Source: Desulfovibrio desulfuricans
GTDB taxonomy: Bacteria > Desulfobacterota > Desulfovibrionia > Desulfovibrionales > Desulfovibrionaceae
Length of the DNA stretch: 64,000 nt
Assembly (NCBI GenBank): GCA_015062205.1
Contig: SUVB01000051.1
Location: forward strand, 25,816 to 89,815
Reading direction: 5' to 3'
Each line of letters begins with the position of its first letter. The first letter of the stretch is position 1. The translations under genes were made by a program, and so were the position numbers. The notes beneath the pieces are model-generated. The model had not been told where the DNA came from and searched no databases. It worked only from the letters and a program-made list of their open reading frames with translations. Shown piece after piece: positions 49,201-64,000 of this stretch.

Positions 49201-49411
49201 CGACAGCCCCTCACGGGCTTGCATGGAACAACGCGCCGGGCGCCGTCACGTCCGCAGCAACGCCTTTTTTGACAGTTGCAGGCAGCCTGCCATAGACAGC
49301 GTCCGCACAAAGCGCTTGCCACAAAGCCCCGCCATGGGATACCCTAGGAACGGCAGGCGTGCCGTTTTTCATTGGGCGCGCCCTTTGTCCGTATCTACCC
49401 GAGAGGCGCGC

Positions 49412-50785
49412 ATGGAAGCTTTGTACAGTTTTTTGCAGCAGGTCAGCGATTTTGTCTGGGGGCCGGTGATGCTGGTCATGCTGGTGGGCACCGGCCTGTA
49501 CCTGACATTGGGCCTGCACTTCTTTTCCTTCCGCAACTGGATCACGGCATATCGCTGCCTCTGGGCCGGGCGGAAGGATCAGTCGGAACGCGGTGAGGTT
49601 TCCCCCTGGAATGCCCTGATGACGGCCCTTGCCGCCGATATCGGCACCGGCAACATCGTGGGCGTGGCCACGGCCATTGCCGTGGGCGGCCCGGGCGCGC
49701 TGTTCTGGATGTGGATGACCGCCCTTGTGGGCATGATGACAAAATTTTCCGAAGTGCTGCTTTCCGTGCACTTCCGCGAGCGCACCCCCGCCGGCAACTG
49801 GGTGGGCGGGGCCATGTATTTCATCAAGAACGGCCTTGGCCCCAACTGGAAATGGCTGGCCACCTGTTTCGCCCTGTTCGGCATGATCGCCTGTTTCGGC
49901 ATCGGCGGCATGGTGCAGTCCAACGCCATCAGCGTGAACCTGGAACGAACCGCAGGCGTGCCCAATGCCGTCACGGCCCTCCTGCTGCTCCTCCTGGCGG
50001 GCATGGTGCTGGTGGGCGGCGTGAAGCGCGTGGGCGCCGTGGCCGGCAGGCTGGTGCCCTTCATGGCCGCCATCTACGTGGTCATGTGCATGGTCATTAT
50101 CTGCCTGAATTTCACGCGCATCCCCGCCATTGTGTGGTGGGTCATCAGCGACGCCTTCACCCCCACCGCCGCGCAGGGCGGCTTTGCCGGGGCCACGGTA
50201 ATGATGGCCATCCGCATGGGCATGGCCCGCGGCGTCTTTTCCAACGAGGCGGGCCTCGGCTCCGCGCCCATGGCCCACGCCGCGTCCACGGCGGAATCCC
50301 CGCTGGTGCAGGCCAGCATCGGCATGCTGGACGTGTTCATCGACACCATCATTGTCTGCTCCATGACGGGCTTTGTGATTCTCATTTCCCTGACGCCCGA
50401 AGGCCAGCCCCTGTGGAGCTCCGGCCTCAACGGCGGCCTGCTCACCGCCGCCGCCTTCAAGGCCTCGCTGTCCAGCTTCGGCGAATACGGCGTCACCATC
50501 TGCCTCACGCTCTTCGCCTTCACCACGTCGCTCGGCTGGTGCGTCTACGGCGAGCGCTGCGTCATCTACCTCTTCGGCGACAGGGGGCAGAAGCCCTTCC
50601 GCATCGTCTTTGTCTGCGCCATTGCCCTGGGCGCCGTGCTCAAGCTGGACCTGGTCTGGCTGCTTTCCGACATCGGCAACGCGCTCATGGCCTTCCCCAA
50701 CATTCTGGGCATTCTGCTGCTCAGCCCGGTACTGTTTCAGATTGTGCGCGACGAGGTCAGCAAGGACCCGCGCTTCGTGCTGTAA
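49412..50785 (+). CDS. Alanine/glycine:cation symporter (AGCS family)
   Basis: GTGNIVGVATAI..GGPGALFWMW, RGVFSNEAGLGSAP, DT.IVC.MTG, FAFTT..GW..YGE. Confidence 0.95.
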   Translation: MEALYSFLQQVSDFVWGPVMLVMLVGTGLYLTLGLHFFSFRNWITAYRCLWAGRKDQSERGEVSPWNALMTALAADIGTGNIVGVATAIAVGGPGALFWMWMTALVGMMTKFSEVLLSVHFRERTPAGNWVGGAMYFIKNGLGPNWKWLATCFALFGMIACFGIGGMVQSNAISVNLERTAGVPNAVTALLLLLLAGMVLVGGVKRVGAVAGRLVPFMAAIYVVMCMVIICLNFTRIPAIVWWVISDAFTPTAAQGGFAGATVMMAIRMGMARGVFSNEAGLGSAPMAHAASTAESPLVQASIGMLDVFIDTIIVCSMTGFVILISLTPEGQPLWSSGLNGGLLTAAAFKASLSSFGEYGVTICLTLFAFTTSLGWCVYGERCVIYLFGDRGQKPFRIVFVCAIALGAVLKLDLVWLLSDIGNALMAFPNILGILLLSPVLFQIVRDEVSKDPRFVL

Positions 50786-50835
50786 GGCGACCGCATGCGC
50801 GGCATGGACCCGCCCCGGCAGGTCGCTGACGACAG

Positions 50836-50867
50836 AAAAGGCCCCGGCGGCAACGCCGGGGCCTTTT
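50836..50867. terminator. Bidirectional Rho-independent terminator
   Basis: AAAAGGCCCCGGCG-gcaa-CGCCGGGGCCTTTT between convergent genes. Confidence 0.8.
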
Positions 50868-50904
50868 GCGCCGCTGGGCGAAGGTGCTGCCCCGCCCTCC
50901 TGCC

Positions 50905-51480
50905 TCAGGGCAGGGGCGGCAGGATGTTGAGTCCGGTAAATCGCGCTTCCTGTTCCGGCGTCGGCAGCGCCTGCTGCGACGGCGAGAACAGGAACCACTG
51001 CTGATTCGCGGGATGCCAGAAGTGGATACGGCGGGCATGCAGCCCGGCATCGGCGGCGAAAGCGCGGATGGTCGGTTCCGTATAGGCGGCAAGTACGCTC
51101 TCCCCCTTGGGAAAATTGTCGAAATAGAACCAGCCCGAGCGCGTCTCGTCCGCGTCGCCCACGAAAAACGTGGCAAACAGCCTGCGCATGATATCCTTGC
51201 CGGTATGCGTGAAGATGGACAGCGCGACAATAACGTCAAAACGGACATCAAACGGGACGGAAAAATCGTCTGCGGCAGAAAAATGGGGAGATTTTACGGT
51301 CAGGATATCCTCGCCAAGTTCCTCCCGCAACGCCTCCTGCACGAGCCATTGGTTGGGTTCGACGCCGTAGTAGTGCCCCGCCTGAAGGTAGGAAATGAAA
51401 AAACGGCCGCCCCGCAGGGAGCCGCAGCCGAAATCCAACTGTGAAGCGCCGATGACGTCATACAGCCTGCCCGGCCCCAC
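50905..51480 (-). CDS. Class I SAM-dependent methyltransferase, probably 5'-truncated or degraded
   Basis: LDFGCGSLRGGR motif I, YYGVEPN, SIFTH; only a GTG start; in-frame TGA at 51517-51519 just upstream. Confidence 0.55.
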   Translation of the reverse strand: MGPGRLYDVIGASQLDFGCGSLRGGRFFISYLQAGHYYGVEPNQWLVQEALREELGEDILTVKSPHFSAADDFSVPFDVRFDVIVALSIFTHTGKDIMRRLFATFFVGDADETRSGWFYFDNFPKGESVLAAYTEPTIRAFAADAGLHARRIHFWHPANQQWFLFSPSQQALPTPEQEARFTGLNILPPLP

Positions 51481-51564
51481 ACAGGTTCTGTACGCCTTCT
51501 GTTCCTTGAACGAGCCTCAGCAGCGGATAGGAACGGGGGAACTCCGCGGGGAAGACCGCCCTCG

Positions 51565-52341
51565 CTACTGCCCGCGGATCCAGTACGTTTCGAAGCCGTC
51601 TTCCAGCTGGCCGTCCCTCACGCCGGTGAACCCCGCCTCCTTGAAGAGGTTGCGGTATTCGTCCTGCGTGCGCCGCCAGCCCCAGAACTGTTGCCGCCGT
51701 ATGCCCAGATAATGCAGCACGCCGCGGATGAGGATCTTGATGGCGTTCACGAAGCTGCCGATGAAGGAATCCTCCTCCAGCAGCGAAGCGGAGAGCAGCA
51801 CCAGTTCCCCGCCGGGGGCGAGCTGCGCCCGCAGCTCCCAGAGCAGGCGCTGGAACTCGCGCGTGGGAATGCCGTAGTCCACGGTGGAGAGGTAGATCAT
51901 GTCGTAGTGCACGTCCGGGGGCAGGCACCCCGGGGGCAGACCTATGTAGATGCGATCGCCGGGAATATGCTCGCGCAGCCACCTCATGCCCACGGTGCTG
52001 GGCTCGTTGACGTGCAGTTCCAACTCCGGCATTTCATCCAGCAGGATCTTTTCCATGTAGCCGACGCCGCTGCCGATGGAGAGCACGCGCACGGGCTCCC
52101 TGCGGCCCGCAGGTTCCTGGGCGAGTTTGGCGCGCAGCTGCCCGAGAAGCCAGCGGGCATCCTTGCGCTTGTTCTCACACCAGACCGCAGGCAGGTCGTT
52201 CCAGTCCTTGTAGCGGCGGAAGAGTTCCTCGTAAAACACCGCGTAAAACTTGGGTTCCGCCAGATGGAAAAAGGAAAGGTGCGAAAATGTCGTAAACGGT
52301 ATGCCTTGCCAACTTTCCTGATAAAAACGCCGCACGTTCAC
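51565..52341 (-). CDS. Methyltransferase-like hypothetical protein
   Basis: GTG start with GGAGG RBS; VLSIGSGVG glycine-rich motif, YDMIYL, L.PGG. Confidence 0.7.
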   Translation of the reverse strand: MNVRRFYQESWQGIPFTTFSHLSFFHLAEPKFYAVFYEELFRRYKDWNDLPAVWCENKRKDARWLLGQLRAKLAQEPAGRREPVRVLSIGSGVGYMEKILLDEMPELELHVNEPSTVGMRWLREHIPGDRIYIGLPPGCLPPDVHYDMIYLSTVDYGIPTREFQRLLWELRAQLAPGGELVLLSASLLEEDSFIGSFVNAIKILIRGVLHYLGIRRQQFWGWRRTQDEYRNLFKEAGFTGVRDGQLEDGFETYWIRGQ

Positions 52342-52453
52342 AGCCTCCGGAAGGGACACGGGGAATCGCCGGGCGCGCATCCCGCAGTTGTCAGTATAGA
52401 CCAAGCGCCGGAAAGGCGCAATGCGGCGCGGCCGGCGCGACGCAAATGGCGCG

Positions 52454-53191
52454 CTATATATCCTTGGGACGGCGCATCTCCCCCACCCAGCGGGAAAGCC
52501 CGGTGCGGGAAAAAACCGCATCGGCGGGCTTCAAGGCGCTGAGGCGCTCCTTCAGCGCCTCCTGCGCCTCCCTGTCCGGAAACGCCACCGTGCAGGCCTT
52601 TCTGCCCCGCTGACGGAAGGCGTTCAGCCGTTGCGGGTCAAAGGCGGCGTCGCGCGCCGCATCGTCGGGCACAGGTTCATGGTACTCCGCAATGACCAGC
52701 ATCTTTCTGAACTGCAGGACGAACTTTGCCCGGTACACAAGGCAGGCCTGCCCCGCCGCGTCAAAAGGGTTCTGCCCTGCCCGGAAGGCCATCAGGCTCT
52801 CATACAGCGTCTGCCCCGCGTGTTCATACTGCACGGCCTGCAGCACGGGAAAGGGTTCGTTATGCCCGTGATCCCACAGCCAGGGGTCCGTGGCTTCGGC
52901 CAGGGCGGTGATGAGCACGCCCTCGCCGTTCTCGTAGCCAGCAAACCACAGCCGCGCATTGCCCGGCTCCGTGACGCGGGTTTTCGGGATCAGATCGCGC
53001 CAGCCGGCCGTCTGCAGCACCATGCCCGGCGCGGGCACGAACTGGACCGCCGGTCGCGCGCGCGAGGCCAGCACCTGCTGCGAAGCCGCAGGAATGTGCG
53101 CAAGGCCGCGCAAGGGCGGCTGCGCGCCCATCTGCCGGACCAGAAGAAAGCCGCCTGCCAGCAGCACGGCAAACAGAAGAACAATTTTCAT
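52454..53191 (-). CDS. Hypothetical exported/membrane-anchored protein (possibly DUF4851-like)
   Basis: Hydrophobic N-terminus MKIVLLFAVLLAGG; no catalytic motif recognised. Confidence 0.5.
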   Translation of the reverse strand: MKIVLLFAVLLAGGFLLVRQMGAQPPLRGLAHIPAASQQVLASRARPAVQFVPAPGMVLQTAGWRDLIPKTRVTEPGNARLWFAGYENGEGVLITALAEATDPWLWDHGHNEPFPVLQAVQYEHAGQTLYESLMAFRAGQNPFDAAGQACLVYRAKFVLQFRKMLVIAEYHEPVPDDAARDAAFDPQRLNAFRQRGRKACTVAFPDREAQEALKERLSALKPADAVFSRTGLSRWVGEMRRPKDI

Positions 53192-53419
53192 GCGCGCATC
53201 TCCGGGCATCAGGTTGCGATACGAACGCCCCGCAGGGCCGGAAACGGAGGGCACTCTACGCCAAAGCGGCCGGGAAGGAAAGAGCGTCCGCGCACGGCGC
53301 GGGCACTCCGCGGCGGGCTTGCGCCGTGCGGCTTCAGGCCACGCGGCCGGGCAGGCCGGCCAACGGCATGCGCATGGCGGTTGCAGGCGCAGACAGGCGC
53401 TCCAACCCGGCCCGCCGCG

Positions 53420-53992
53420 CTACCATTCCGGCAAAAAGCAGCGGCAGGCATAGTGCTGCGGGATACGCAGCACCTCGTCAAGAGGCAGGGCCAGGTAGCG
53501 GGCCAGCAGGACGCGCAGCACGCCCGCATGCGCGACGCACAGCAGCGCGCCCTGCGGATAGCGCTGCCGCCAGCGGGCCAGCGCATCCAGAGCGCGGCGC
53601 TGGACTGCGGCGAAGCTTTCCCCGCCGGGAGGGACAAAGTCGCCCATATCCCGGCCGCGTGCCGCGTGCGCGCCGGGCCAGCGGATTTCAATCTCTTCGC
53701 GGGTCAGGCCTTCCCAGCGGCCAAGGCTTATTTCGCGCAGGCCCGGCTCCACATGCAGGGGAACAGGCTCGAAATGCTCCAGCAGCAGGGCTGCTGTTTC
53801 ACGGCAGCGGGACAAGTCCGAGGTGATGACGGCGCACAGCCGTCCGCGCAGGCCGGGCATGAACCCGCGCGCCAGGGCGCGCGCCTGCGCCCGGCCCGTT
53901 GCGCTCAGGGCAATGTCGCGCGCGCCGACCATGCGGCCTTCCGGATCAGGCGGCAGCGCGCCGTGCCGCACCAGCCAGACGCCGCCGCTCAC
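53420..53992 (-). CDS. Histidine phosphatase (phosphoglycerate mutase/CobC-like)
   Basis: LVRHG, SDLSRCRETA, LREI..G.WEG, GGESF, VAHAG. Confidence 0.9.
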   Translation of the reverse strand: MSGGVWLVRHGALPPDPEGRMVGARDIALSATGRAQARALARGFMPGLRGRLCAVITSDLSRCRETAALLLEHFEPVPLHVEPGLREISLGRWEGLTREEIEIRWPGAHAARGRDMGDFVPPGGESFAAVQRRALDALARWRQRYPQGALLCVAHAGVLRVLLARYLALPLDEVLRIPQHYACRCFLPEW

Positions 53993-55200
53993 GCCCCGCC
54001 TCCGCCCGACGGCATGGCGGCTGCGGCCGCCAGCGCCTCCTGCGCCATGTCGGCCGGAGCGCGCCCCGTTTCCGCCGCCAGACGCGCCTCCAGCAGGCGC
54101 GCCCTGTGCAGGCGTCCGGCGATGGCCGCGCAGGCTGCGGCATCTCCGGCATACAGCGCCATCTTCAGTGCAAAACGGCGCGCCAGCGGCACAAATTCCC
54201 CGCCACGGCAGTATTTGTCCGCCAAGCAGACCAGTTCGCGCTCCGTGATCGGCTGCGCGTCCGGCAGGCGCAGGTCACGATGGCCGCGCACCAGCGCGGC
54301 CATGCGCGGCAGGCCCAGACTGTCCAGCAGCTCGCCCCCGGCCCGTTCATGGCACGGCTGCCCCTTGCAGACATCGTGCAGCAGCCCTCCGGCCCGCGCC
54401 AGCTCAGGATCAAGCTGCGCAGCCATGCCCGCTGCCGTGCGGCAACGCGCCAGCTCTGCCGCAAAGCGGGCAGCCACGGTCCCCACGGCGCGGGCATGGC
54501 GCAGGCCCTTTTCCGGCACGGCGCGCAGGGCCAGCAAAACTTCCGCCTCCGCCGGGGAAAGCGCCTCCCGCGCGGCCGCCAGAGCCGACAGGCGCGTGTA
54601 GTCTTCCGGCGTGTCCATGTCTTGCAGCATCAGGGCATCGGGCGTGGGCACGAGGCGCCGGGGCAGGTCCGCCAGCGCGCCCTGCAGGCCGCCACGCCCG
54701 CCATACGCCAGAATGCGCGGCGCAGCGGCGGCGGGAATCAGGGGCGGATGCCCCTCGCGTCCGGCAAAGACGGGCACGAACACGGGCGGGGACGTTGCGG
54801 CGTCGGCTGCGGCGGCTTCCCGGGCGGCCGCCAGCAGGGCCTGCACAGTCAGCGGCCGCACCAGCGGCACATCCACGGGATGCACGAACACGGGGCGGCC
54901 CGGGTGCCGCCGCGCCAGCGCGGCCAGCCCCGTCCGCACGGAAGAGAACATGCCTTCTTCCGGCGCGGGATTGCGCGCTGCCGCGAGGCCCAGAACTCCG
55001 GCCTCCGCCTCCACGGCGGCGGCATAAAAGCCGCTCACGACCAGGATGTCTTCCAAACCGCAGGCCCGATACAGCCGCGCGACGGCGGCCAGTGCGGAAC
55101 AGGCCGCGCGCCCTCCCGGCAAGGGCAGGGGCAGCAGGGCCTTGACCCGCCCCATGCGCTCGGCCCTTCCGGCGGCAAGGATTATAACGGTTGGCTGCAT
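53989..55200 (-). CDS. MocA-like nucleotidyltransferase fused to HD domain (DVU_1551-like)
   Basis: IILAAGRAERMG..KALL, GMFSSV, PVD.P, GHPP, DMDTPEDY; C-terminal H...LLHDV.K...H...G, ADK. Confidence 0.85.
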   Translation of the reverse strand: MQPTVIILAAGRAERMGRVKALLPLPLPGGRAACSALAAVARLYRACGLEDILVVSGFYAAAVEAEAGVLGLAAARNPAPEEGMFSSVRTGLAALARRHPGRPVFVHPVDVPLVRPLTVQALLAAAREAAAADAATSPPVFVPVFAGREGHPPLIPAAAAPRILAYGGRGGLQGALADLPRRLVPTPDALMLQDMDTPEDYTRLSALAAAREALSPAEAEVLLALRAVPEKGLRHARAVGTVAARFAAELARCRTAAGMAAQLDPELARAGGLLHDVCKGQPCHERAGGELLDSLGLPRMAALVRGHRDLRLPDAQPITERELVCLADKYCRGGEFVPLARRFALKMALYAGDAAACAAIAGRLHRARLLEARLAAETGRAPADMAQEALAAAAAMPSGGGGA

Positions 55201-55443
55201 GACGCTCCCGGCGGATGTTGTGAACATGCGCGCCGAAAACAGCATATCATCGGGAGAGGCCCTTGCGCAAACAGCGGTTTCTGCCGCCAGGCGGCATGCG
55301 CGCGAATGTCCGCCCTGCCGCTTCTTGAAGTTCGGTATCGTGCCGCTGCCGGCAATGCGGAGGACGCGCCGGACCAGTTCGTCCGGATCAGGCGGTTTTC
55401 CTTGTATTCCGTGCAGGAGTCCGTTTCACGCAGGGGCTGCCGC

Positions 55444-55484
55444 AAAAGAGCAGGCCCCCGGTGACGCCGGGGGCCTGCTCTTTT
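55444..55484. terminator. Strong bidirectional terminator-like hairpin after amidohydrolase
   Basis: 18-bp perfect inverted repeat AAAAGAGCAGGCCCCCGG-tgacg-CCGGGGGCCTGCTCTTTT. Confidence 0.8.
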
Positions 55485-55515
55485 GCCATGCTGCATTCCT
55501 GGTCGGTCAGGCCGG

Positions 55516-56370
55516 CTAGGGCAGCTTCATCCCCAGCAGTTTTTCCGCGTTGCCGCGGAAGAACTTCTTCTTGTGCTCTTCGGAGAAATTGAACCTGTCA
55601 AGGTCGTGAATGGCCTGCTTCAGATTGTAGCAGGGGTAGGCCGAACCGTACAGGATGCGTTCGCCGTCAAGCCAGCGCATGGCCTCGCCGTACATCTGGT
55701 TGCCGGGGGCGTCGGGATTGAGCATGTACAGATCCGGCAACAGCCAGATATTGGGCTGCACGATGCACAGGTTCACGACATGGAGCAGCCAGGGGTAGCA
55801 GGCGTGCGCCAGCACGATCTGCAGGTCCGGGAAATCCTGCGCGACGCGCTGCGCGGCCGCCGGATTGGAATAGTCCAGATTGCCCTGGAAGAAGCTCATG
55901 GTGAGCACCACCGGCACCCGGGCCTTTTCCAGACGCGCATAGATGGGGTAGAGAACATTCGCGTCCGCGAAACGCGGCGGCATGCAGTAGGCGGGCTCCA
56001 TGGCGATGCCCTTGAAACCCATGCTCAGGCAGCGCTCCAGTTCGTCCATGGCGGCGGCCACGCCGCGCGACACGTCCAGGCTGCCGAAGGGAATGATCCT
56101 GTCCGGGTAGGCCCTGGCCATGTCGTTGATGTCGTCATTGGGAACGGAGGCCGTGTCGTCCGGCACCTGACGGCCGATGATGACGCCGGCGCTGATGCCC
56201 GCCTCGTCCATCTCTTTCCAGAAAAGGTCGATGGACTTTTCACGGGCGGCCTGGCTCGGCACTCCGTGCCATTTCTGGGGCGAGCTTTCGTTGCAGACAG
56301 GGTTGCCGTAAATGCCGAGATTGGTGAATTTCTTGTATGGCGGCCGCAGCCGGAAATCAAAAATCTTCAT
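55516..56370 (-). CDS. Amidohydrolase family protein (Amidohydro_2 type)
   Basis: IFDFR.RPP, GFKGI..EP, LYPIY, PDL.IVLAH, LYGSAYP, F..NAEKLL; GGAG RBS before MKIF. Confidence 0.85.
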   Translation of the reverse strand: MKIFDFRLRPPYKKFTNLGIYGNPVCNESSPQKWHGVPSQAAREKSIDLFWKEMDEAGISAGVIIGRQVPDDTASVPNDDINDMARAYPDRIIPFGSLDVSRGVAAAMDELERCLSMGFKGIAMEPAYCMPPRFADANVLYPIYARLEKARVPVVLTMSFFQGNLDYSNPAAAQRVAQDFPDLQIVLAHACYPWLLHVVNLCIVQPNIWLLPDLYMLNPDAPGNQMYGEAMRWLDGERILYGSAYPCYNLKQAIHDLDRFNFSEEHKKKFFRGNAEKLLGMKLP

Positions 56371-56426
56371 GACACACTCCAAGTATCTGAATTTGCATAT
56401 TGCCATATGCCGGAACATGGAATTCG

Positions 56427-57545
56427 TCAACGTATTTCACGGCTGCTCCCGGGGCGGGCGGCGGCATGCGCGCCCTTGGGCAGCCGCGCGATGCGCGGCC
56501 CCGCTCCCGCGGCGTCGCGGAGAATGCGGCCCCGCACCGGGCCAAGCCGGGGCAGGGGGCTGCCGCAGGCGCAGGGCCCCGGCAGCAGGGAGGCCACGTC
56601 GCCCGTACGGTAGCGCACCAGCGGCATGGCCTCGCGCTGCAGCGTGGTGATGACCACCTCGCCCTCCTCGCCGGGCGGCAGCACCCGATCGCCCGTCATG
56701 GCGACAATTTCCACGTACACATCCAGCGCGCGCAAATGATAGCCGTCGTGGGCCGGGCATTCCACGGCGCAGCCATAGCCGGTTTCGGTCAGGCCGTAAT
56801 GGTCCAGCGTCAGGCAGCCCCAGCGCTCCCGCAGAACGCGGGCCAAGCCCGGCGGCAGCGGTTCCGCGCTGGACAGGATGCCCGCAAGGCCGGGCGGTCC
56901 CGCATCAGGAAACTGCGGCAGAAGACGCTCCAGCTGGGCGGGCGCGGCCACCACGCAGTGCGGGCGAAGTTGCGCAAGCTGCCGCGCCGCCGCGCTGCCG
57001 CGCAACAGCTCCGGCGGCAGGGCGAGCACCTCCACCCCGTCGGCCTCAAGGGCCTGCCGCAGCAGGTCGGCCACGCCGTCCGGACGTTCCGCGCCCGGCA
57101 GAAGCACGACCAGCCGTTGCCCCCGCCCCGCCAGCCCGCGCATGCCCACGGCGAAAAACTGACGCGTGCGCGCAAGGTCCGCTTCCGTGAAGGCCAGCCG
57201 CTTGGGCGCGCCCGTAGTGCCCGAGGTGCGCAGCGTGACCATGCGCTCCACCGCCCCGCGCGACACGCAGAGAAAATCCTCCCAGCGCGCCAGGTCTTCG
57301 GGCCGGGTGAAGGGCAGACGCGCCAGATCATCCGGACCGGACACGTCAAGGCAATGCCCGCGCAGCAGCCGCGCGTAAAAACGGCTGTTCCCGCCCGCAT
57401 GGCGCAGAACGCGCCGAAGGGCGGCCATGCGCGCGGCCGTGAGCCGCCGGGGCAGGTCTTCCGGCGATGCGCCGCACTGCCCGGCCAGCCAGGCGTCCAA
57501 CGCGCAGGCGAACCTGCCGGGGGGCGGCGCTGCGCCCGTTGTCAC
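56427..57545 (-). CDS. Phenylacetate-CoA-ligase-like AMP-forming enzyme (DVU_1553-like)
   Basis: TSGTTGAPKR, DHYGLTETG, VVITTL, MPLVRYRTGD; GTG start overlaps radical SAM stop. Confidence 0.85.
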   Translation of the reverse strand: MTTGAAPPPGRFACALDAWLAGQCGASPEDLPRRLTAARMAALRRVLRHAGGNSRFYARLLRGHCLDVSGPDDLARLPFTRPEDLARWEDFLCVSRGAVERMVTLRTSGTTGAPKRLAFTEADLARTRQFFAVGMRGLAGRGQRLVVLLPGAERPDGVADLLRQALEADGVEVLALPPELLRGSAAARQLAQLRPHCVVAAPAQLERLLPQFPDAGPPGLAGILSSAEPLPPGLARVLRERWGCLTLDHYGLTETGYGCAVECPAHDGYHLRALDVYVEIVAMTGDRVLPPGEEGEVVITTLQREAMPLVRYRTGDVASLLPGPCACGSPLPRLGPVRGRILRDAAGAGPRIARLPKGAHAAARPGSSREIR

Positions 57546-58942
57546 CGCCCGTCCCCGTACAGCCGCGTGCCGTCCGCGGACGTGATGTTGTGCAGACAGA
57601 AGGGGATAAGCCGCCCGTCGGGCCGCGCCACATGGATGCAGCAGCCGCGCACGCGGTCCACGTCCAGACTCAGGGCGTCCTGAAAGGCCATGGCCGAAAG
57701 GGTGAAACGGCGTTCCGCCCCGGCCTCGGCCAGAAAGCGGCTGAAGCCGTCTGCGGCGGCGCTTTCGCGGCCGGAGGGCGTCGGCGCAGGGCCGCTCCCC
57801 TTCCAGTGCAGGGCCGTGAAGCGGCGGGATTGCCGCGCCCCCTCCGCCGCCGGAGGCGGCGCAAAAGGGGCCTGCGGCGCGGGCGCGCAGCAGGCGGCCT
57901 GCCCCAGCGGTTCCAGCGCGGGCGCGCCCTGCCGCTCCGTACGGCGGTACACGGCGCTGAAGGAGCAGAGTTCGTGCTCGCAGCCCGGCGGGTGCACATG
58001 GCCGGGACTGAACAGTTCCGGGGCCTGCTGCGCCAGCGCGCCCATCACTTCGGGCAGGGTCAGACGCGGGGCCTGCTCCAGCCGCCAGGGGTACCGCCCG
58101 AAAAAGGCGGCTGGCTGCAAATGCAGGCCGCGCACGGCAGGCCCCAGACGCAGGGCCAGACGCAGGAGTTCGCCCAGTTCGTCCGAATTGACGCCGCGCA
58201 CGACGGTGGCCACCAGCACCACCCCCAGACCCGCGCGGGCGCAGTGCTCCACGGCGCGGCGCTTGAAGGCCAGACACTCCCGGCCGCGCAGCGACAGGAA
58301 GGACGCCTCGCGCGCGCCGTCCCACTGCAGGTAGACGGAATCCAGCCCCGCCGCGCGCAGCCGCGCGGCATATTCCGGGTCTTCGGCCAGCCGCAGGCCG
58401 TTGGTATTGAGCTGCACAAGGCCGAAGCCGCGCTGCCGGGCCAGGGAAAGGATGGCGGGCAGGTCGTCGCGCACGGTGGGCTCCCCGCCGGAAATCTGCA
58501 CGTTGCAGGGGCCGGAGGCCTGCCGGAGGGCATCCAGCTGCGCGGCGACGACTGCCGGGGGCGGGTCCCCCGCGACCGCCTCCGCGCCCGCGACCGCGTA
58601 GCAGACGGGGCAGGCCATGTTGCAGCGCAAGGTCACTTCCACAAGGCCGGTGCAGGTGTGCTGGGCATGCGCCGGGCACAGGCCGCAGTCAAAAGGACAG
58701 CCCCCCGCAATGGACGTGGCGGGACGGGCAGGATAGGAAGGCGCCTTGGGACGCGACCAGTCCGCAAAGGCGGGCGTGGAAGGGCCGCCCTTCTGCGGCT
58801 CGCGCCACACGGGCACGCTGAAGGCCCCGTGCTCCGGGCAGCGCTTGCGCAGCAGGACGGCGGCGCCGTCGGGGGCTTGCTCGTACACGGCGTCCAGCCG
58901 CCGCAGACAGACGGGGCAAAGACTCTGGGTACGGCGCAGCAT
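57542..58942 (-). CDS. Radical SAM protein with extra Cys clusters (TrsS-like; Tes/GDGT-MAS MJ0619-like architecture)
   Basis: N-terminal CPVC...CPEH, CPFDCGLC, RS motif CNMACPVC, SGGEPT, C-terminal CCIH...IPFC. Confidence 0.85.
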   Translation of the reverse strand: MLRRTQSLCPVCLRRLDAVYEQAPDGAAVLLRKRCPEHGAFSVPVWREPQKGGPSTPAFADWSRPKAPSYPARPATSIAGGCPFDCGLCPAHAQHTCTGLVEVTLRCNMACPVCYAVAGAEAVAGDPPPAVVAAQLDALRQASGPCNVQISGGEPTVRDDLPAILSLARQRGFGLVQLNTNGLRLAEDPEYAARLRAAGLDSVYLQWDGAREASFLSLRGRECLAFKRRAVEHCARAGLGVVLVATVVRGVNSDELGELLRLALRLGPAVRGLHLQPAAFFGRYPWRLEQAPRLTLPEVMGALAQQAPELFSPGHVHPPGCEHELCSFSAVYRRTERQGAPALEPLGQAACCAPAPQAPFAPPPAAEGARQSRRFTALHWKGSGPAPTPSGRESAAADGFSRFLAEAGAERRFTLSAMAFQDALSLDVDRVRGCCIHVARPDGRLIPFCLHNITSADGTRLYGDGR

Positions 58943-59406
58943 CACGCCCCCGCAGCGAGATCCAGCCCGTAGCTTTCGGCCAGCTCCAGGATCTTTTCCC
59001 AGCATTCGGCCAGCAGGTCGCCGCAAACCATAGGATCGGGCCGTTCCCCGGGCGCGCCGGAGGAAGCCCCCAACCCGGCGGCCACCTGCCCGCAGCGCAG
59101 GCCGCCGTACGCCTCAACGCGCGCATGGAACCACATGCCGTACTCGTTGAGCAGGGGCGTGAACATGGGGTGCGCCGTTTCGTCTTCCGAGCCCTTGCCC
59201 GCCGCCAGCGCAAGGGCGCAGGCCCCGCCCGTGAGCAGCCCGCACGGCCCGTCGGACTGCCCTATGCCGTGGCACAGGCCCTGCGCCGCGCGCACTGCGT
59301 CAGGACAGTCCCTGTTCATGGCCTGCGCCATGAGCAGCAGCAACAGCTGGCTGCAGCAGTAGCCCTGACGCGCCAGCGGCAGCAGTTCCATCATCATGGG
59401 GTGCAT
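58942..59406 (-). CDS. C-GCAxxG-C-C family putative redox protein (DVU_1555-like)
   Basis: GYCCSQ, GLCHGIG, CGLLTGGACA, C..., C.DL pattern. Confidence 0.85.
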   Translation of the reverse strand: MHPMMMELLPLARQGYCCSQLLLLLMAQAMNRDCPDAVRAAQGLCHGIGQSDGPCGLLTGGACALALAAGKGSEDETAHPMFTPLLNEYGMWFHARVEAYGGLRCGQVAAGLGASSGAPGERPDPMVCGDLLAECWEKILELAESYGLDLAAGA

Positions 59407-60137
59407 ACGGTCTCCTTTTTTCGGGCGATCCACAATCCGTACCCGTAGCGGCGCGGAACCGAAAGAGCGCAGGCGCACGCCCCGCTTTTCGCCGGGTCTG
59501 TCCCGGCGGAAAGGCGGGACGCGGCAGGCCCGCTCTCCCCGTCGCCATACCAGAGCATGCGCGCCGCCAGCTCCACGAGGGCCCGGCTGTGATCCTCATA
59601 CAGCAGCACGCCAAATCCGGCCTTTTCCAGAAAATCGCGCCACCCGGCGGCAGGGCGCGCGCCCTTCAGGCAGGAAGCGCCCTCCTCCCGGCCCGGTCTC
59701 CGGCCCGCCTCCTCCGCGCGCAGCGTCAGATCGCCCACAATGCCTATGCCGCCCGCTCGCAGAACGCGGCAGGCGGCGCGCAGAACTGCCAGGGGATCGT
59801 CCAGCAGGGAAAGCACGCACTCGCAGAGCACCATATCCGCGCAGCCTTCGGCCAGCGGCGGGCGGCGCAGATCGGCGCGCACAAAGGCTGACGCGGCGGC
59901 CCCTCCCCCTTCCGGCCCGTCCCCGCGGTCCAGCCCCACGGCGACATAGCCCCGCGCCGCCAGCAATTCCAGCGTGGCCCCACCCCCGCAGCCCCAGTCC
60001 TGCGCCAAGGCCGGGGGTCGCATCAGCCCCCGCGCCTCGCACCAGTCGAGCGCGCGGCGCGTCAGGGCGCGGCCGCCGGGCCGCCACGCGCCCCCTGCCG
60101 CAACGCGAAAATCCGCCCGCTCCCACAGCGCGCTCAC
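59394..60137 (-). CDS. Class I SAM methyltransferase (DVU_1556-like)
   Basis: RPGG..LT, DWGCGGG, GLD, ECVLSL, LRAGG, GYGLWIARK; GTG start overlaps upstream stop. Confidence 0.85.
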   Translation of the reverse strand: MSALWERADFRVAAGGAWRPGGRALTRRALDWCEARGLMRPPALAQDWGCGGGATLELLAARGYVAVGLDRGDGPEGGGAAASAFVRADLRRPPLAEGCADMVLCECVLSLLDDPLAVLRAACRVLRAGGIGIVGDLTLRAEEAGRRPGREEGASCLKGARPAAGWRDFLEKAGFGVLLYEDHSRALVELAARMLWYGDGESGPAASRLSAGTDPAKSGACACALSVPRRYGYGLWIARKKETVCTP

Positions 60138-60349
60138 TTGTCCTCCAGCAGCGCTTCCACTTCCAGCATCTTGCCTTCGGCCAACGACCTGGGCACCATC
60201 GTCAGGCCGCATTGGGGGCAGCGCGGCAACACCACGTCAAAGGCGCTGTTGAGATAGAACACCGATGTCCTGATCTGCTCCAGAGGCACGCCGCAACGGC
60301 CGCACACCCAGCGGCCGCCGTCCGGCCCGTAATTCGGCCCCATGCTCAT
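60134..60349 (-). CDS. Small CxxC..CxxC redox/metal-binding protein (DVU_1557-like)
   Basis: WVCGRC...LPRCPQCG...LAEGKMLEVEALLEDK. Confidence 0.8.
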   Translation of the reverse strand: MSMGPNYGPDGGRWVCGRCGVPLEQIRTSVFYLNSAFDVVLPRCPQCGLTMVPRSLAEGKMLEVEALLEDK

Positions 60350-62778
60350 GACCGCTCCCTCTTGCCGCCGTCGGTGCCGCTCTGGCAGGCCCTGACAACA
60401 TCCTCGGCTTCCTGCCCTCCTGCGCCGGGGACAATCATGCGATGGCACCAGGCGTCGCGCAGTTCGTACTCCTCGCCCCGCTTCCGGTATGCCACCCAGA
60501 ACGTCACCTTGCGCGGCCGCCATGAGCCGAGCCTGCACCCGTCTTCCCGATTCTCGAACCAGTGCCCGCAGGCTTCCGCCCCGGCCACGGCCTCCGTGAC
60601 GTCTGTGAGCAGGATATGCCGTTCCTCCAGCCGCGCCAGCAGATCTGGGGCGACACGCAGGCGACAGGACGGCTTCGGCGGCTCGGGGACTGCGCCGCCG
60701 CGCGCCAGCAGACGCGCGCGCAGGGCCGCCCGGTTGGCCCGTCGGGCCGAAAGGCCCGGCCCCGGCGTCGCGCCCGAAGCGGGGAATGCCCCCGGCAGCA
60801 GCACATCCAGCAGATGCAGGCACTCCTTGCCCCCGGCGACCAAGCGGTCGCGGCACATGATGCACGAAGCAAGGCCGGGATGCGGCAGTTCCGCCGCACG
60901 CCGGTCCCCCATGACGCCGGCCAGTTCCGGCTGGGCGCACCACACCAGACCGCCGTAGCCGCAGCAGCCCGTGGTCGCGCCGGAAAAACGCGGTTCCTCA
61001 ATGCGCGCGCCGCACTTGCGGGCCAGGCTGCGCACCGCCGCCAGCCAGGCCGCGTCATGCCGGGCGGCACAGGGATCGTGCATGGAAAACAGCTCGGGCA
61101 ACGCCGCCTGCGCGCCGTCCGCACTGCCGGACAGGCCGTCCCGCAGCGCGCGCAGGCCGGAAGCGTCCAGCCCGTCCAGAACCTCCCACACCGAAAGGGC
61201 CTGCGCTTCGGGCAGGGTTTCACGCAACACCGTGAGGCAGGAGGCGCAGGCCGCCATGACGCGCGGGCGGCCCAGGCGTTCCCACGCCGCCCGCAGTCGC
61301 GCCGCGTGTTCGCGGAACAGCCGCGTCCGTCCGGCCCAGCGCGCGGGTATGCCGCAACAGGAGAGCATGAGCGCCACGCCCGGCGTCGGCCCCTCCGCAA
61401 GAACGGCGCGCAGCCGCTCGTAGAGCGCTGCCACCTGTTCCCCGCGCGAGGCTGCCAGCTGGCAGCCGGGGAAAAACAGCCACGCGGGAGCGCCGCCGTC
61501 CGCCCCCGTATCCGGCAGGGTCAGGGCGCAGTCCGGGCCGGAGGCGTTTTCCATGTCCTCCAGGGCAAACTCATGAGCGGAGGGCGGCATGAAGCCGCGC
61601 TCCACCATATCCTCGCGGGCGGCCAGACACAGCTCGGCCATGGAGAAATTTTCGGGGCACAGTTCCTCGCAGCGACCGCACAGGGCGCAGCCATTGATCA
61701 TGGCATTGGCCGTGTGCAGGCCCTTGACGATGGCAGCGTTATTATACGCCTGCCGCGCATAGAGGCGCGGATAGCCCTTGTATTTTTGCAGATACGCGCA
61801 TTGCCGCACGCAGATCAGGCACTCGCACTGCAGGCAGCGCTGCGCCTCGGCGCGGGCCTCCTGCGCGTCGAACAGCCCCTCGTCGCCCGCGCGGACGGCA
61901 GGTTCCACCTGCGGCACGGGCGCAATGCCCGTCACATCCGTATGCAGGGGGTTCTGCTGCCTGACGCGTGCGGCCGTCAGCGAAACCTTGCCCGCCAGGC
62001 GCTCCATGGTCTGCGCGGCCTGCCTGCCCTCCCCCGCCTGACGCGAGGACGCGATGAAGGCATGCCCCGTGGCCGTGCGCCCCGGCCGCCCCGCGCAGCA
62101 GATATTGCCGCGCCAGAGCAGCGTGTCCGGCTCCACGGCCGCCGTCTCCGGGGCCAGTTCCGGAAAGGCGTCCGCATCCAGCAGCACGGCGTCGTATTCT
62201 TCGGCCGCGCGCTCCAGCAGGGCGGCCTCCGCCTCCGACGGCGCGAAGACGACGTTCCGGGCCGTGAGGGCGGCCATATCTTCCGCCGCGAAATCCTTGG
62301 CAATGCCCTCCGTGGACTGCAGTTGCGGATAGCGCGTGAGCAGCGCGTCCAGGGGCGCGCCCCGGTGGAACACGGTAACGGGATAGGCCTTGCGCGCCAG
62401 ATCCCACGCCGCGGCCAGCCCCGCCAGCCCCGCCCCCAGCACGGCCATGCGCAGACGCTTGGGCGGCAGGGGGAGGGTCCGCCCCTGCGGTCCTGCGGTC
62501 AGCATGCAGGCCAGCTCCAGGCCGTGCAGGGCCACGCTGCCGCCGAGGTCGCGACGCAGACAGACGTTTTCGCACGGGTGGTCGCAGATGCGCGCCATGA
62601 TGCCCGGCAGGGGCAGGTGCAGCTCCAGCAGCCTGCGGGCCTCGCCCGGCCGCCCTTCGGCCATGCGGGCCATGAAGGCGCGCACGTCCAGACCGAAAGG
62701 ACAAGCGGCGCGGCAGCGCGGCGGGCTCTCCTGGGTACAGTGCGATTCTATTTCGTGCAGGCGGTTCTGGTTCATCAT
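60346..62778 (-). CDS. Multi-FeS flavoprotein oxidoreductase: GltD-like N-terminus, dicluster, CCG domains (DVU_1558-like)
   Basis: C.QE.PP.C.AACP, ICDHPCE..C.R, GAGLAG FAD motif, CLQCECLICVRQC, CALCGRCEELCP, FFPGC, CCG, HDPC, CCGYGG. Confidence 0.85.
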   Translation of the reverse strand: MMNQNRLHEIESHCTQESPPRCRAACPFGLDVRAFMARMAEGRPGEARRLLELHLPLPGIMARICDHPCENVCLRRDLGGSVALHGLELACMLTAGPQGRTLPLPPKRLRMAVLGAGLAGLAAAWDLARKAYPVTVFHRGAPLDALLTRYPQLQSTEGIAKDFAAEDMAALTARNVVFAPSEAEAALLERAAEEYDAVLLDADAFPELAPETAAVEPDTLLWRGNICCAGRPGRTATGHAFIASSRQAGEGRQAAQTMERLAGKVSLTAARVRQQNPLHTDVTGIAPVPQVEPAVRAGDEGLFDAQEARAEAQRCLQCECLICVRQCAYLQKYKGYPRLYARQAYNNAAIVKGLHTANAMINGCALCGRCEELCPENFSMAELCLAAREDMVERGFMPPSAHEFALEDMENASGPDCALTLPDTGADGGAPAWLFFPGCQLAASRGEQVAALYERLRAVLAEGPTPGVALMLSCCGIPARWAGRTRLFREHAARLRAAWERLGRPRVMAACASCLTVLRETLPEAQALSVWEVLDGLDASGLRALRDGLSGSADGAQAALPELFSMHDPCAARHDAAWLAAVRSLARKCGARIEEPRFSGATTGCCGYGGLVWCAQPELAGVMGDRRAAELPHPGLASCIMCRDRLVAGGKECLHLLDVLLPGAFPASGATPGPGLSARRANRAALRARLLARGGAVPEPPKPSCRLRVAPDLLARLEERHILLTDVTEAVAGAEACGHWFENREDGCRLGSWRPRKVTFWVAYRKRGEEYELRDAWCHRMIVPGAGGQEAEDVVRACQSGTDGGKRERS

Positions 62779-62875
62779 GGCATCGGCTCGCTGCGCAGGA
62801 TGACGCGGGTTGCAGAATGGCGGCGGACAAAGGCCCTGTTGCCGCCTTTGCCCGCCGGTTGCCGGTTTTTTTCGT

Positions 62876-64000
62876 CTACTTGGGCATGGCCTCCAGCACC
62901 TTGTCAGGACGGGCGGGCAGATGCCGCACGCGCGCCCCGCAGGCATTGTAGATGGCGTTGATGATGGCCGGATGCGGCGCGGTGAGGGGCATCTCGCCCA
63001 CGCCGGACGCGCCGAAGGGGCCGTCCTTGCGCGGCGTCTGCACATAGACGATTTCCATGTCGTCGGGAATCATCCTGATGCCGGGCACGCCCGCGCCGCC
63101 CATGGTGGCATGCTTCTTGAGATCCTCATAATCCTCGGACAGGGCCAGGCCCACGCCCTGCGCCATGCCGCCGTAGATCTGGCCGTCCACCACAAGCTTG
63201 TTGTTGACCTTGCCGATGTCGGTCACGCAGACCAGCTTTTCCACCGTGGTCTTGCCGGTGGCGACCTCCACCGCCACTTCGGCCAGGAACAGGCCGTACA
63301 TGTAGCAGGCGAAGGGCTCGCCCTGGCCCTTGGCGTCGCAGTCCCTGGCGGGGGCGGTCCACTTGCCGTCGTAGTGCACGGGGCGGCCGTCCGCCAGCAT
63401 TTCGCCATAGGTGAGGAAGCCGCCGTCCGCCTTGCGCATGCCTTCCAGCAGCAGTTCGCAGGCCACGCGGATGGCGTTGCCCGTGACCACCTGCGAGCGG
63501 GAACCGCCCGCCGGGCCGGAATTGGGCGTCTTGCTGGTGTCGTTCATGACCAGGCGTATGCGTTCGGGCGCAAGGCCCAGCGGCCGCAGGGCCTCGTGGG
63601 CCGTGCCCAGCGCGCCGGAATCCGCGCCCTGGCCGTGGTCTTCCCACGAACTGCCGATGGTCACGGAGCCGTCGGCATTGAGTTCCGCCCAGGCCTCGGA
63701 GGTGTCCGGCCCGTCCAGGCCCGCGCCGTACACGCCGAGGGCGATGCCCGTGCCGCGCTTGACCTCCGCCGTGGAGCGCTCCTTCACGCGCTTTTTGGAT
63801 TCCTCATAATAGGGGCGCATGGCCTTGAACATCTCCGGCAGGCTCAGGACTTCGGGCGCCTGTCCGGAAGGCGTGGTGTCCCCCTCCCTGTAGCAGTTCA
63901 GTTCGCGCAGGTCGAAAGGATCCATGCCCAGCTTCTCGGCCAGCTCGTCCATGAGCACTTCGGAGGGGAATTCCGACTCCGGCGCGCCGTAGCCGCGGAA
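62876..64000 (-). CDS. mop: Molybdopterin-dependent aldehyde oxidoreductase (xanthine oxidase family), C-terminal part
   Basis: FRGYGAPESEF, EDHGQG, SGPAGGSRSQV, YMYG, DGQIYGG..QG.GLAL, GASGVGE.P. Confidence 0.92.
   Translation of the reverse strand, partial: FRGYGAPESEFPSEVLMDELAEKLGMDPFDLRELNCYREGDTTPSGQAPEVLSLPEMFKAMRPYYEESKKRVKERSTAEVKRGTGIALGVYGAGLDGPDTSEAWAELNADGSVTIGSSWEDHGQGADSGALGTAHEALRPLGLAPERIRLVMNDTSKTPNSGPAGGSRSQVVTGNAIRVACELLLEGMRKADGGFLTYGEMLADGRPVHYDGKWTAPARDCDAKGQGEPFACYMYGLFLAEVAVEVATGKTTVEKLVCVTDIGKVNNKLVVDGQIYGGMAQGVGLALSEDYEDLKKHATMGGAGVPGIRMIPDDMEIVYVQTPRKDGPFGASGVGEMPLTAPHPAIINAIYNACGARVRHLPARPDKVLEAMPK

Follow-up and report, generated by a model that had tools for sequence, protein, structure and literature searches.

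The aldehyde oxidoreductase Mop of Desulfovibrio is a textbook molybdenum enzyme; to our knowledge, there is still no settled view of its physiological substrate or electron acceptor. Here we describe ten minus-strand genes, beginning with mop, that occupy positions 53420–64000 of a 64,000-nucleotide (nt) stretch of the Desulfovibrio desulfuricans genome (hereafter the window). Genes of this kind have been catalogued as families. The NCBIfam collection holds a set of models for the DVU_1551–DVU_1559 proteins and TrsS (NF045645, NF045646 and NF045663–NF045669), and the name TrsS, with its listing as a selenoprotein, is credited by PMC13188914 to Haft & Tolstoy 2025 (mSystems 10:e0141724). A 2017 transcriptome study of Clostridium ljungdahlii found that two tandem sets (CLJU_RS11830–11815 and RS11870–11850) are induced on syngas and/or H2/CO2, called their reactions unknown and urged that they be investigated (PMC5640608). 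The first four genes of these sets, for Mop, a fused flavin adenine dinucleotide (FAD)/CCG oxidoreductase, a 4-Cys protein and a C_GCAxxG_C_C protein, come in the same order as here; the study made no link to a radical S-adenosylmethionine (SAM) enzyme, a methyltransferase or a ligase, and a membrane electron carrier was assumed as the partner (PMC5640608). In proteomics papers on D. vulgaris, DVU_1559 is listed only as an ethanol-metabolism enzyme. Searched for in the literature, the DVU locus tags, TrsS, GCAxxG and DUF7479 turned up in catalogue and expression mentions only, and no functional study was found.

The window carries a member of the catalogued set. Genes were called from open reading frames and their translations, from NCBIfam and Pfam profile scans and by inspection of start codons, and all ten lie where a sequence-only reading of the window had placed them. 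Eight of them score above NCBIfam equivalog cut-offs, mop as a whole gene: those encoding Mop, a multi-Fe-S flavoprotein (F), a small zinc-ribbon protein (z), a methyltransferase (T), a C-GCAxxG-C-C protein (C), the radical SAM enzyme TrsS, a PaaK-like adenylate-forming enzyme (L) and a MocA-like protein (N). They follow the catalogued order, beside Mop. The sequence-only reading had linked these genes to the DVU_1551–1559 families of D. vulgaris, names that the models indeed bear, and its statement that no pathway had been demonstrated agrees with the published record outlined above. Compared with the catalogued set, the window encodes the cysteine form of TrsS and the short L of the Desulfovibrionaceae, has XdhC outside the island, and contains an inserted amidohydrolase gene with a putative terminator. 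It is another copy of a known gene set, and what is new in it amounts to the amidohydrolase and terminator insertion and to the lack of XdhC in the island, a trait shared by the genus.

The island consists of a Mop module (Mop with its molybdenum-cofactor genes) and a separable cassette, F-z-T-C-TrsS-L. Our analysis narrows the question of what this operon does to one small protein, z, which appears to be the hub of the cassette, and one residue, its terminal lysine. Judged from the alignments and gene fusions described below, the invariant C-terminal lysine of z and the fusion of z to CCG domains look to be the most informative feature of the island.

In order to examine the conservation of the island, a TrsS pattern scan was run over one genome per species; it gave 600 matching stretches, 597 of them encoding TrsS relatives. 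From these stretches the best 80, chosen by TrsS similarity and taken with 10-kb flanks, formed the locus set, and the 57 loci of at least 19 kb are referred to as long loci; 41 of the latter carry a true Mop. The loci belong to Desulfobacterota, Bacillota (Clostridium, Acetobacterium, Sporomusa, Desulfosporosinus), Chloroflexota, Acidobacteriota, Campylobacterota and Spirochaetota. Searches (tblastn) with the window proteins revealed a near-fixed order: MoCF-binding protein, Mop, F, z, T, C, TrsS, L, (XdhC), N and a histidine phosphatase (h). The order in the window, Mop-F-z-T-C-TrsS-L...N, is the same as in the 41 long Mop loci and in six loci of relatives (five of the same genus and G016). 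None of the 41 long Mop loci lacks F, z or C; L occurs in 40 and T in 39, and the cofactor genes are somewhat less constant (XdhC in 34, N in 32, h in 30). With the same order found again in 41 of the 57 long loci and at least six phyla, the arrangement goes far beyond what chance would produce.

In a sample of 301 genomes of the phylum, TrsS scores above its cut-off in 27, including all eight of the genus to which the window belongs. Mop was sought in 80 of the 301 genomes, 28 with TrsS (one of them with a split TrsS) and 52 without it. Equivalog-level Mop was found in 19 of the 28 TrsS-positive genomes and in none of the 52 others (Fisher P = 6e-12, not corrected for relatedness); Mop-like paralogues scoring 740–850 bits do exist in TrsS-negative genomes. 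Independent assortment of the genes, which the sequence-only reading had named as an outcome that would speak against it, is thus not what was observed: the genes co-occur tightly, both in the 41 Mop loci and in the 19 genomes with Mop, all of which have TrsS. The genes are functionally linked, and because equivalog-level Mop was never found without the cassette in the genomes sampled and at least 597 TrsS-encoding stretches occur in at least six phyla, Mop function appears to be tied to a radical-SAM-dependent process.

TrsS does occur without Mop, in 8–9 of the 28 TrsS-positive genomes and in 16 of the 57 long loci, although in 2–3 of these loci Mop is merely cut at the flank boundary. At such loci the cassette lies beside other redox enzymes: an AOR-family W/Mo enzyme with a ferredoxin-like gene and aldehyde dehydrogenases (L046, L089, L090); dimethyl sulfoxide (DMSO)-reductase-family enzymes, one with a CoxM-like FAD subunit (L036, L088); a NarI-like membrane cytochrome b with a DsrK-like protein (L083); or a double-cubane/HgdAB-like reductase with a BcrAD-type ATPase (L081). 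The Mop-less loci keep z, T, TrsS and L, and usually C. Their F has lost its GltD-like N-terminal half, leaving the dicluster, the two CCG motifs and the C-terminal domain Fct (see below), which persists either free or fused to z. The invariant core of the cassette consists of the HdrB/HdrD-like CCG module, Fct and z, a zinc-ribbon protein of 60–70 aa. N, h and XdhC accompany Mop and not the cassette, N being absent from the Mop-less cassette loci. From these gene neighbourhoods, the cassette is best described as a portable module that would plug into different redox input enzymes, most of them low-potential. A single coupled system of ten genes, as proposed by the sequence-only reading, is not borne out: the amidohydrolase gene is an insertion, MocA-HD (N) and the histidine phosphatase travel with Mop, and the cassette is separable and is found also with non-Mop redox modules.

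The protein z (60134–60349; 71 aa) belongs to the 'DVU_1557 family redox protein' family (NF045645, 81 bits, cut-off 60; PF24292, DUF7479). It has four invariant cysteines, an invariant Tyr32, a C-terminal helix and the extreme C-terminus ...E-x-x-L-E-D-K. All 69 homologues identified in the loci end in ...(V/A)E-x-x-L-E-(D/E)-K followed by the stop codon. A profile search of 1.84 billion representative proteins (clusters at 50% identity) yielded 373 hits; among the best 150 of these, 144 end in lysine and 142 match [LIMVF]E.K at the end, the six exceptions having the appearance of extended or shifted gene calls. The lysine is retained at the terminus even in divergent clades with TrsS proteins of only 35–37% identity, where z ends in LSYK, LESK, LEAK, IEDK or LEGK. 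In a six-frame translation of the whole 2.65-Mb genome, LE[DE]K followed by a stop occurs once, in z itself.

The tail codons of z in this genome (60137–60150; CTG GAG GAC AAG TGA) double as a Shine-Dalgarno sequence (GGAGGA) and the GTG start of T, and conservation of the tail as a ribosome-binding site of the next gene was therefore considered. This could be ruled out, because synonymous codons vary freely across the loci (Glu, GAA 33/GAG 35; Asp, GAC 37/GAT 29; Lys, AAA 46/AAG 22; six Leu codons) and a Shine-Dalgarno-like 4-mer is found in only 35 of 68 tails. The constraint accordingly acts on the protein. All fusions of z with an identifiable partner domain have the architecture [GltD-like]-[dicluster]-CCG-CCG-Fct-z, with z last. 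In shorter fusions Pfam recognised DUF7479 alone, in one case together with a weak peptidase match, and among the profile-search representatives no fusion of z to T, C, TrsS or L was found. The AlphaFold2 (AF2) model of z (predicted local distance difference test score, pLDDT, 71) consists of a beta-hairpin ribbon and a C-terminal helix. The best match of z in the PDB profile search was to MasE, the small subunit of 1-methylalkylsuccinate synthase (9O8U chain D; E = 1e-3, residues 2–52); the match is weak, and the shared Cys ribbon may be the sole reason for it.

F (60346–62778; 810 aa) is assigned to NF045663, diclust_near_Sec (838 bits, cut-off 530), with Pfam matches to Fer4_20, Fer4_17 and CCG. 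From the N-terminus, it comprises a GltD-like part with two [4Fe-4S] clusters, an NAD(P)/FAD Rossmann motif, a 2x[4Fe-4S] dicluster, two CCG motifs and Fct, a C-terminal domain of ~95–100 aa for which Pfam, PDB and structure searches returned no match. The cysteines of the CCG motifs (C439, C474, C475, C511, C514 and C570, C605, C606, C639, C642) and of the dicluster (C315–C327, C364–C374) are conserved in at least 90% of 61 sequences. F thus carries the complete HdrB/HdrD-type signature, that is, two CX(n)CCGX(m)CXXC motifs and a 2x[4Fe-4S] dicluster.

TrsS (57542–58942; 466 aa; NF045646, 554 bits, cut-off 490) is, as far as sequence comparison can tell, a close paralogue of the tetraether lipid synthase Tes/GDGT-MAS. 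It matches GDGT-MAS (PDB ID: 7TOL) with E = 3e-74 and scores 300 bits against the Tes model NF045702, below the cut-off of 450. Four groups of motifs are invariant in alignments of 15 and of 81 sequences: C9xxC12...C35xxH38; GC82PxDC86GLC89...C97; C107xxxC111xxC114; and C434...H437...C449. The TrsS frame in the window is uninterrupted, and no TGA codon aligned to a cysteine was found in TrsS of the window or of the 80 loci, nor was a selenocysteine (Sec) codon found in any cassette gene of these loci. TrsS is here the Cys form; the family name '(seleno)protein' covers Cys forms, so that its membership holds. A truncated homologue, P0116, was considered as a possible Sec-codon case and set aside, its truncation being due to a contig end. 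At four loci from Dehalococcoidia and Clostridia (L064, L067, L072, L075), the TrsS matches span about twice the query length, which suggests that these lineages have two TrsS genes, in tandem or fused.

L (56427–57545; 372 aa) is a PaaK-like adenylate-forming enzyme of the DVU_1553 family (NF045666, 382 bits, cut-off 300). It adjoins TrsS in 56 of the 57 long loci, the tightest pair of the set. L aligns only with residues 22–330 of the 437 of PaaK, i.e., with the N-terminal domain, scores 90.7 bits against the PaaK model TIGR02155 (cut-off 646) and is without the C-terminal domain of ~100 aa for thioester formation. This short form is characteristic of all Desulfovibrionaceae loci, whereas homologues from other phyla measure 418–432 aa and possess the C-terminal domain; shortening of L by the neighbouring insertion is thereby ruled out.

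T (59394–60137; 247 aa from the GTG at 60137) is a class I SAM methyltransferase of the DVU_1556 family (NF045667, 190 bits, cut-off 155; Methyltransf_11). Its similarity to ArsM or UbiG is weak; E106-C107 (95%) and a GCGxG motif are conserved. C (58942–59406; 154 aa), a DVU_1555-family C-GCAxxG-C-C protein (NF045669, 147 bits, cut-off 103; PF09719), has four invariant cysteines (C18, C55, C105, C128). It is modelled by AF2 with high confidence (pLDDT 93) as an all-alpha protein of seven helices, and Foldseek retrieved no structural neighbour from the PDB at E < 1; the modelled fold therefore seems to be one without a solved representative.

The cassette genes are tightly packed. F and z overlap by 4 nt (the z start, ATG at 60349, overlaps the F stop as ATGA), z and T by 4 nt, T and C by 13 nt, C and TrsS by 1 nt (or by 4 nt if a GTG start is used), and TrsS and L by 4 nt. 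The overlaps of 1–13 nt given by the sequence-only reading thus stand at all five junctions from F to L, and small corrections are needed at three others: mop and F do not overlap, being separated by 97 nt; L and the amidohydrolase gene are 56 nt apart; and 315 nt, containing a strong hairpin, lie between the amidohydrolase gene and N.

As the best, though still tentative, reading of these features we propose that the terminal lysine of z carries a group assembled by L, TrsS and T, possibly helped by C, that F acts on this group and that Mop provides the electrons. Under this proposal z would serve as a carrier, in the manner of LysW, lipoyl domains or DsrC. L would load a carboxylic acid onto the terminal lysine or, alternatively, activate the terminal carboxylate of z; TrsS, in which all metal sites of the tetraether synthase are retained, would attach sulfur or carbon (a C-S or C-C bond) to an unactivated carbon within the tethered group; T would methylate this group; and C might supply sulfur or a cluster, or act in redox. 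The finished arm would dock in the double-CCG site of F for two-electron chemistry of the thiol/disulfide type. Mop would oxidise aldehydes, with the electrons passing through F, and elsewhere the same input role would fall to an AOR, a DMSO-reductase-type enzyme, a DsrMK-like module or a double-cubane reductase.

Several points weigh against this proposal. Each of its steps is a proposal from sequence analysis, and a modified z, an acyl donor and a product are all hypothetical. The 4-Cys ribbon of z could bind iron, making the protein a rubredoxin-like electron shuttle, and an invariant C-terminal tip can serve for docking alone; the model shows the tail as a helix of low confidence, and the z homologue of L081 ends in ...EAKME, with the lysine at position -3. 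PDB profile and Foldseek searches with z matched, apart from the weak MasE match, generic zinc ribbons only, with no LysW or other carrier among the matches. CCG domains are not confined to thiol chemistry, since the lactate, glycolate and glycerol-3-phosphate systems have them too. Among the conserved genes there is neither a hydrolase that could release the product nor an obvious sulfur donor. The Mop-less cassette genomes tested still make molybdenum cofactor (all have MoaC) and most have AORs, which leaves room for a pterin-related role. Finally, the synteny counts in the 80 loci are conditional on TrsS.

The alternative that survives best, possible but on balance doubtful, regards F, z and C as the dedicated redox chain of Mop, in which z is a rubredoxin-like one-electron shuttle with a docking tail; low-potential electrons released by aldehyde oxidation would be delivered to TrsS, and TrsS, L and T would transform a free small molecule. 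Such an outlet is consistent with the four invariant cysteines in the ribbon of z, with its fusion only to Fe-S/CCG proteins and with the absence, among the genomes sampled, of equivalog-level Mop without the cassette. Most of the alternative partners are low-potential sources (AOR; the double-cubane reductase with its ATPase), and Mop, F, z and C of C. ljungdahlii are jointly induced on syngas or H2/CO2, where their discussion was as redox proteins (PMC5640608). However, a shuttle needs no invariant last residue that is always free at the C-terminus, and a plain dicluster ferredoxin would suffice as a conduit, yet two complete CCG motifs are found in every variant. The quinol-linked DsrMK-like input, moreover, would be unable to reach the potential at which a radical SAM cluster is reduced, which favours chemistry of the thiol/disulfide type at the CCG site over a plain wire.

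Somewhat less plausible, and in our view unlikely, is a cassette that matures, sulfurates, repairs or modifies the pyranopterin cofactor or the active site of Mop, AOR and DMSO-reductase-type enzymes. The position of the cassette between mop and molybdenum-cofactor genes (for MocA-HD, XdhC, the MoCF-binding protein and MoeA) would fit such a role, as would the finding that equivalog-level Mop never occurs without TrsS, the presence of MoaC in every cassette genome tested and the predominance of pterin enzymes, of three families, among the alternative partners. On the other hand, N, h and XdhC go with Mop rather than with the cassette, and the cassette is found also beside pterin-free modules, namely the DsrMK-like one and the double-cubane reductase with its ATPase. 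Fusions link z to a CCG redox protein and to no cofactor-handling protein. The final cofactors of the partner enzymes differ as well (molybdopterin-cytosine-dinucleotide, MCD; tungsten bis-molybdopterin, W-bis-MPT; bis-molybdopterin guanine dinucleotide, bis-MGD), so that a shared step would need a common precursor. High-resolution structures of D. gigas Mop contain an ordinary MCD cofactor, which likewise counts against this explanation.

Still less probable is a pathway acting on a free substrate, in which the acid that Mop makes from an aldehyde is activated by L, as an acyl-adenylate or a thioester, and then remodelled by TrsS and T, for instance a lipid or fatty-acid tail as in the case of Tes, AOR and aldehyde dehydrogenases representing non-orthologous displacements of Mop. 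Mop, AOR and aldehyde dehydrogenases are indeed all aldehyde oxidisers and interchangeable beside the cassette, the near-constant neighbour of TrsS is an acid-activating enzyme, and TrsS is the closest paralogue of a lipid C-C coupling enzyme. But this pathway leaves the invariant tail of z and the CCG module without a role, some variants have no aldehyde-oxidising enzyme nearby, L is here devoid of a coenzyme A (CoA)-binding domain, and TrsS falls below the Tes cut-off and differs from Tes in its middle, substrate-binding part. The making or detoxification of an organo-arsenic or organo-selenium compound by an ArsM-like T with TrsS and the Cys-rich proteins is very improbable indeed, since the weak matches of T to arsenite methyltransferase (4e-10) and selenoprotein methyltransferase models, and NCBIfam names implying selenoprotein TrsS and C-GCAxxG-C-C relatives in some species, are outweighed by a score of 39.6 bits against the ArsM cut-off of 263, by the conservation of one arsenic-binding Cys position in T (C107) and not the second, by the lack of Sec codons in the cassette genes of the 80 loci and by an island without ars or selenium genes.

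We return to the reading in which a group is built on the terminal lysine of z. Taken further, it would make z a new kind of carrier with a new lysine-bound prosthetic group, installed by L, remodelled by TrsS, methylated by T and cycled by the double-CCG site of F, a proposal that is conceivable but which we would hold with considerable reserve. If it is true, the z carrier would be the physiological electron acceptor that is missing for Mop-type and some AOR-type enzymes in anaerobes. The suggestion of the sequence-only reading, cofactor maturation or the activation of an acid or aldehyde, was too broad to be wrong, and it passed over the C-terminal lysine of z and the CCG fusion.

The Mop module begins with mop, which is cut by the end of the window. 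The 3' part (62876–64000, 374 codons) matches NF045668, pterin_aldehy, with 642 bits (1.2e-192 on the fragment) and Pfam MoCoBD_1/2; the full gene (907 aa; contig C49, 88694–91414) scores 1651.6 bits against a cut-off of 1100, which identifies its predicted product as a Mo-MCD aldehyde oxidoreductase. Directly upstream of mop and outside the window (contig C49, 91498–92535) is a gene for a 346-aa protein with a MoCF_biosynth domain and a Cys-rich C-terminus (CSQCKECRYPVCPFGK). The position of this MoCF-binding protein upstream of mop is conserved across many phyla. XdhC, which in most phyla lies between L and N, is outside the island in all same-genus genomes examined; the homologue of this genome is on another contig (C35:34145–35152).

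At the other end of the island, N (53989–55200; 403 aa from the ATG at 55200) combines a MocA-like cytidylyltransferase with an HD phosphohydrolase (NF045665, 380 bits, cut-off 315; NTP_transf_3 and HD) and overlaps by 4 nt with h (53420–53992), a CobC-like branch-1 histidine phosphatase (PF00300, 167 bits). N is not an equivalog of MocA (TIGR03310, 83 bits against a cut-off of 186) but a member of the separate DVU_1551 family with an added HD domain, so that a part in MCD synthesis can only be put forward as likely. Similarly, h is not an equivalog of CobC, the alpha-ribazole phosphatase (TIGR03162, 134 bits against 162.9); its context is Mop and MocA-HD, not cobalamin genes, and wherever present, at Mop loci, it adjoins N. 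From these family assignments and positions we infer that MocA-HD, the histidine phosphatase and the MoCF-binding protein serve the MCD cofactor of Mop.

Between L and N lies the gene for a 284-aa Amidohydro_2 protein (55516–56370; PF04909 only, with no NCBIfam match), the nearest solved structure of which is BB4693 (3IRS), an uncharacterised structural-genomics protein. It is absent from all 57 other long loci and from the six loci of relatives, in which N directly follows L. DNA homology to the relatives stops at ~56523 and restarts at ~55202, delimiting a segment of ~1.3 kb with a GC content of 0.61–0.64, compared with 0.73–0.74 in the flanks. The gene has a start supported by a ribosome-binding site (ATG at 56370, 'MKIFDF...'); an overlap with L would require a TTG start at 56430, which is unsupported. 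Just 3' of its stop codon, within the insert, is a terminator-like hairpin (55443–55486, minus strand; RNA fold) with a 20-bp stem followed by UUUUGC and a folding energy of -50.8 kcal/mol (z-score -6.1; equalled by 0 of 200 shuffles). The hairpin was spotted by eye; a promoter/terminator scan, which gave no decisive signals, missed it. The amidohydrolase gene and the terminator-like hairpin are a recent strain-specific insertion between L and N and stand outside the conserved system. The inserted terminator probably ends the upstream transcript, leaving N and h to a promoter in the 315-nt gap.

The flanking part of the window (46864–53254) is unrelated to the island. It encodes a HypF carbamoyltransferase (46864–49200) and a Na+/alanine symporter (49145–50785) on the plus strand, and two small methyltransferase-like proteins (50905–51480, 51565–52521) and a DUF4851 protein (52454–53254) on the minus strand.

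Outside the catalogued set, three groups of characterised systems resemble parts of the cassette. Four features of TrsS recur in Tes/GDGT-MAS (7TOL): a Cys3His ribbon at the N-terminus, the auxiliary-cluster motif CPxDCGxC, the radical SAM motif CxxxCxxC and, at the C-terminus, the motif CC..H..C. Unlike in GDGT-MAS, however, the middle ~100 residues, where the alignment breaks, are unrelated, and the gene context is one of redox proteins rather than of lipid synthesis.

The second group comprises carrier systems with a small protein, or a lysine arm, at their centre. LysW is a zinc ribbon with a conserved C-terminal tail that is served by an ATP-dependent ligase; lipoyl-lysine arises through an adenylating ligase together with an auxiliary-cluster radical SAM enzyme; and in the DsrC/DsrK pair a conserved C-terminal arm docks in a CCG site. 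With LysW/ArgW, the lipoyl and biotinyl lysine arms and DsrC-DsrK the cassette shares a small protein with an invariant flexible C-terminal end, and, in its overall logic, an ATP-dependent ligase, an auxiliary-cluster radical SAM enzyme and a CCG-type docking partner. The likeness of z to these carriers is one of analogy alone: z has no sequence or fold homology to LysW or DsrC, it ends in Lys rather than in Glu (LysW, EDWGE) or Cys (DsrC), and the cassette ligase is PaaK-like, not an ATP-grasp enzyme of the LysX type or LplA.

The third group is formed by HdrB/HdrD, DsrK and class II benzoyl-CoA reductases of the BamBCDE type, with which F shares the 2x[4Fe-4S] dicluster and two full CX(n)CCGX(m)CXXC motifs; elsewhere, the place next to the cassette is filled by a DsrK-like protein or by AOR-type enzymes. 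F differs from all of them in being fused to a GltD-like N-terminal half and to Fct.

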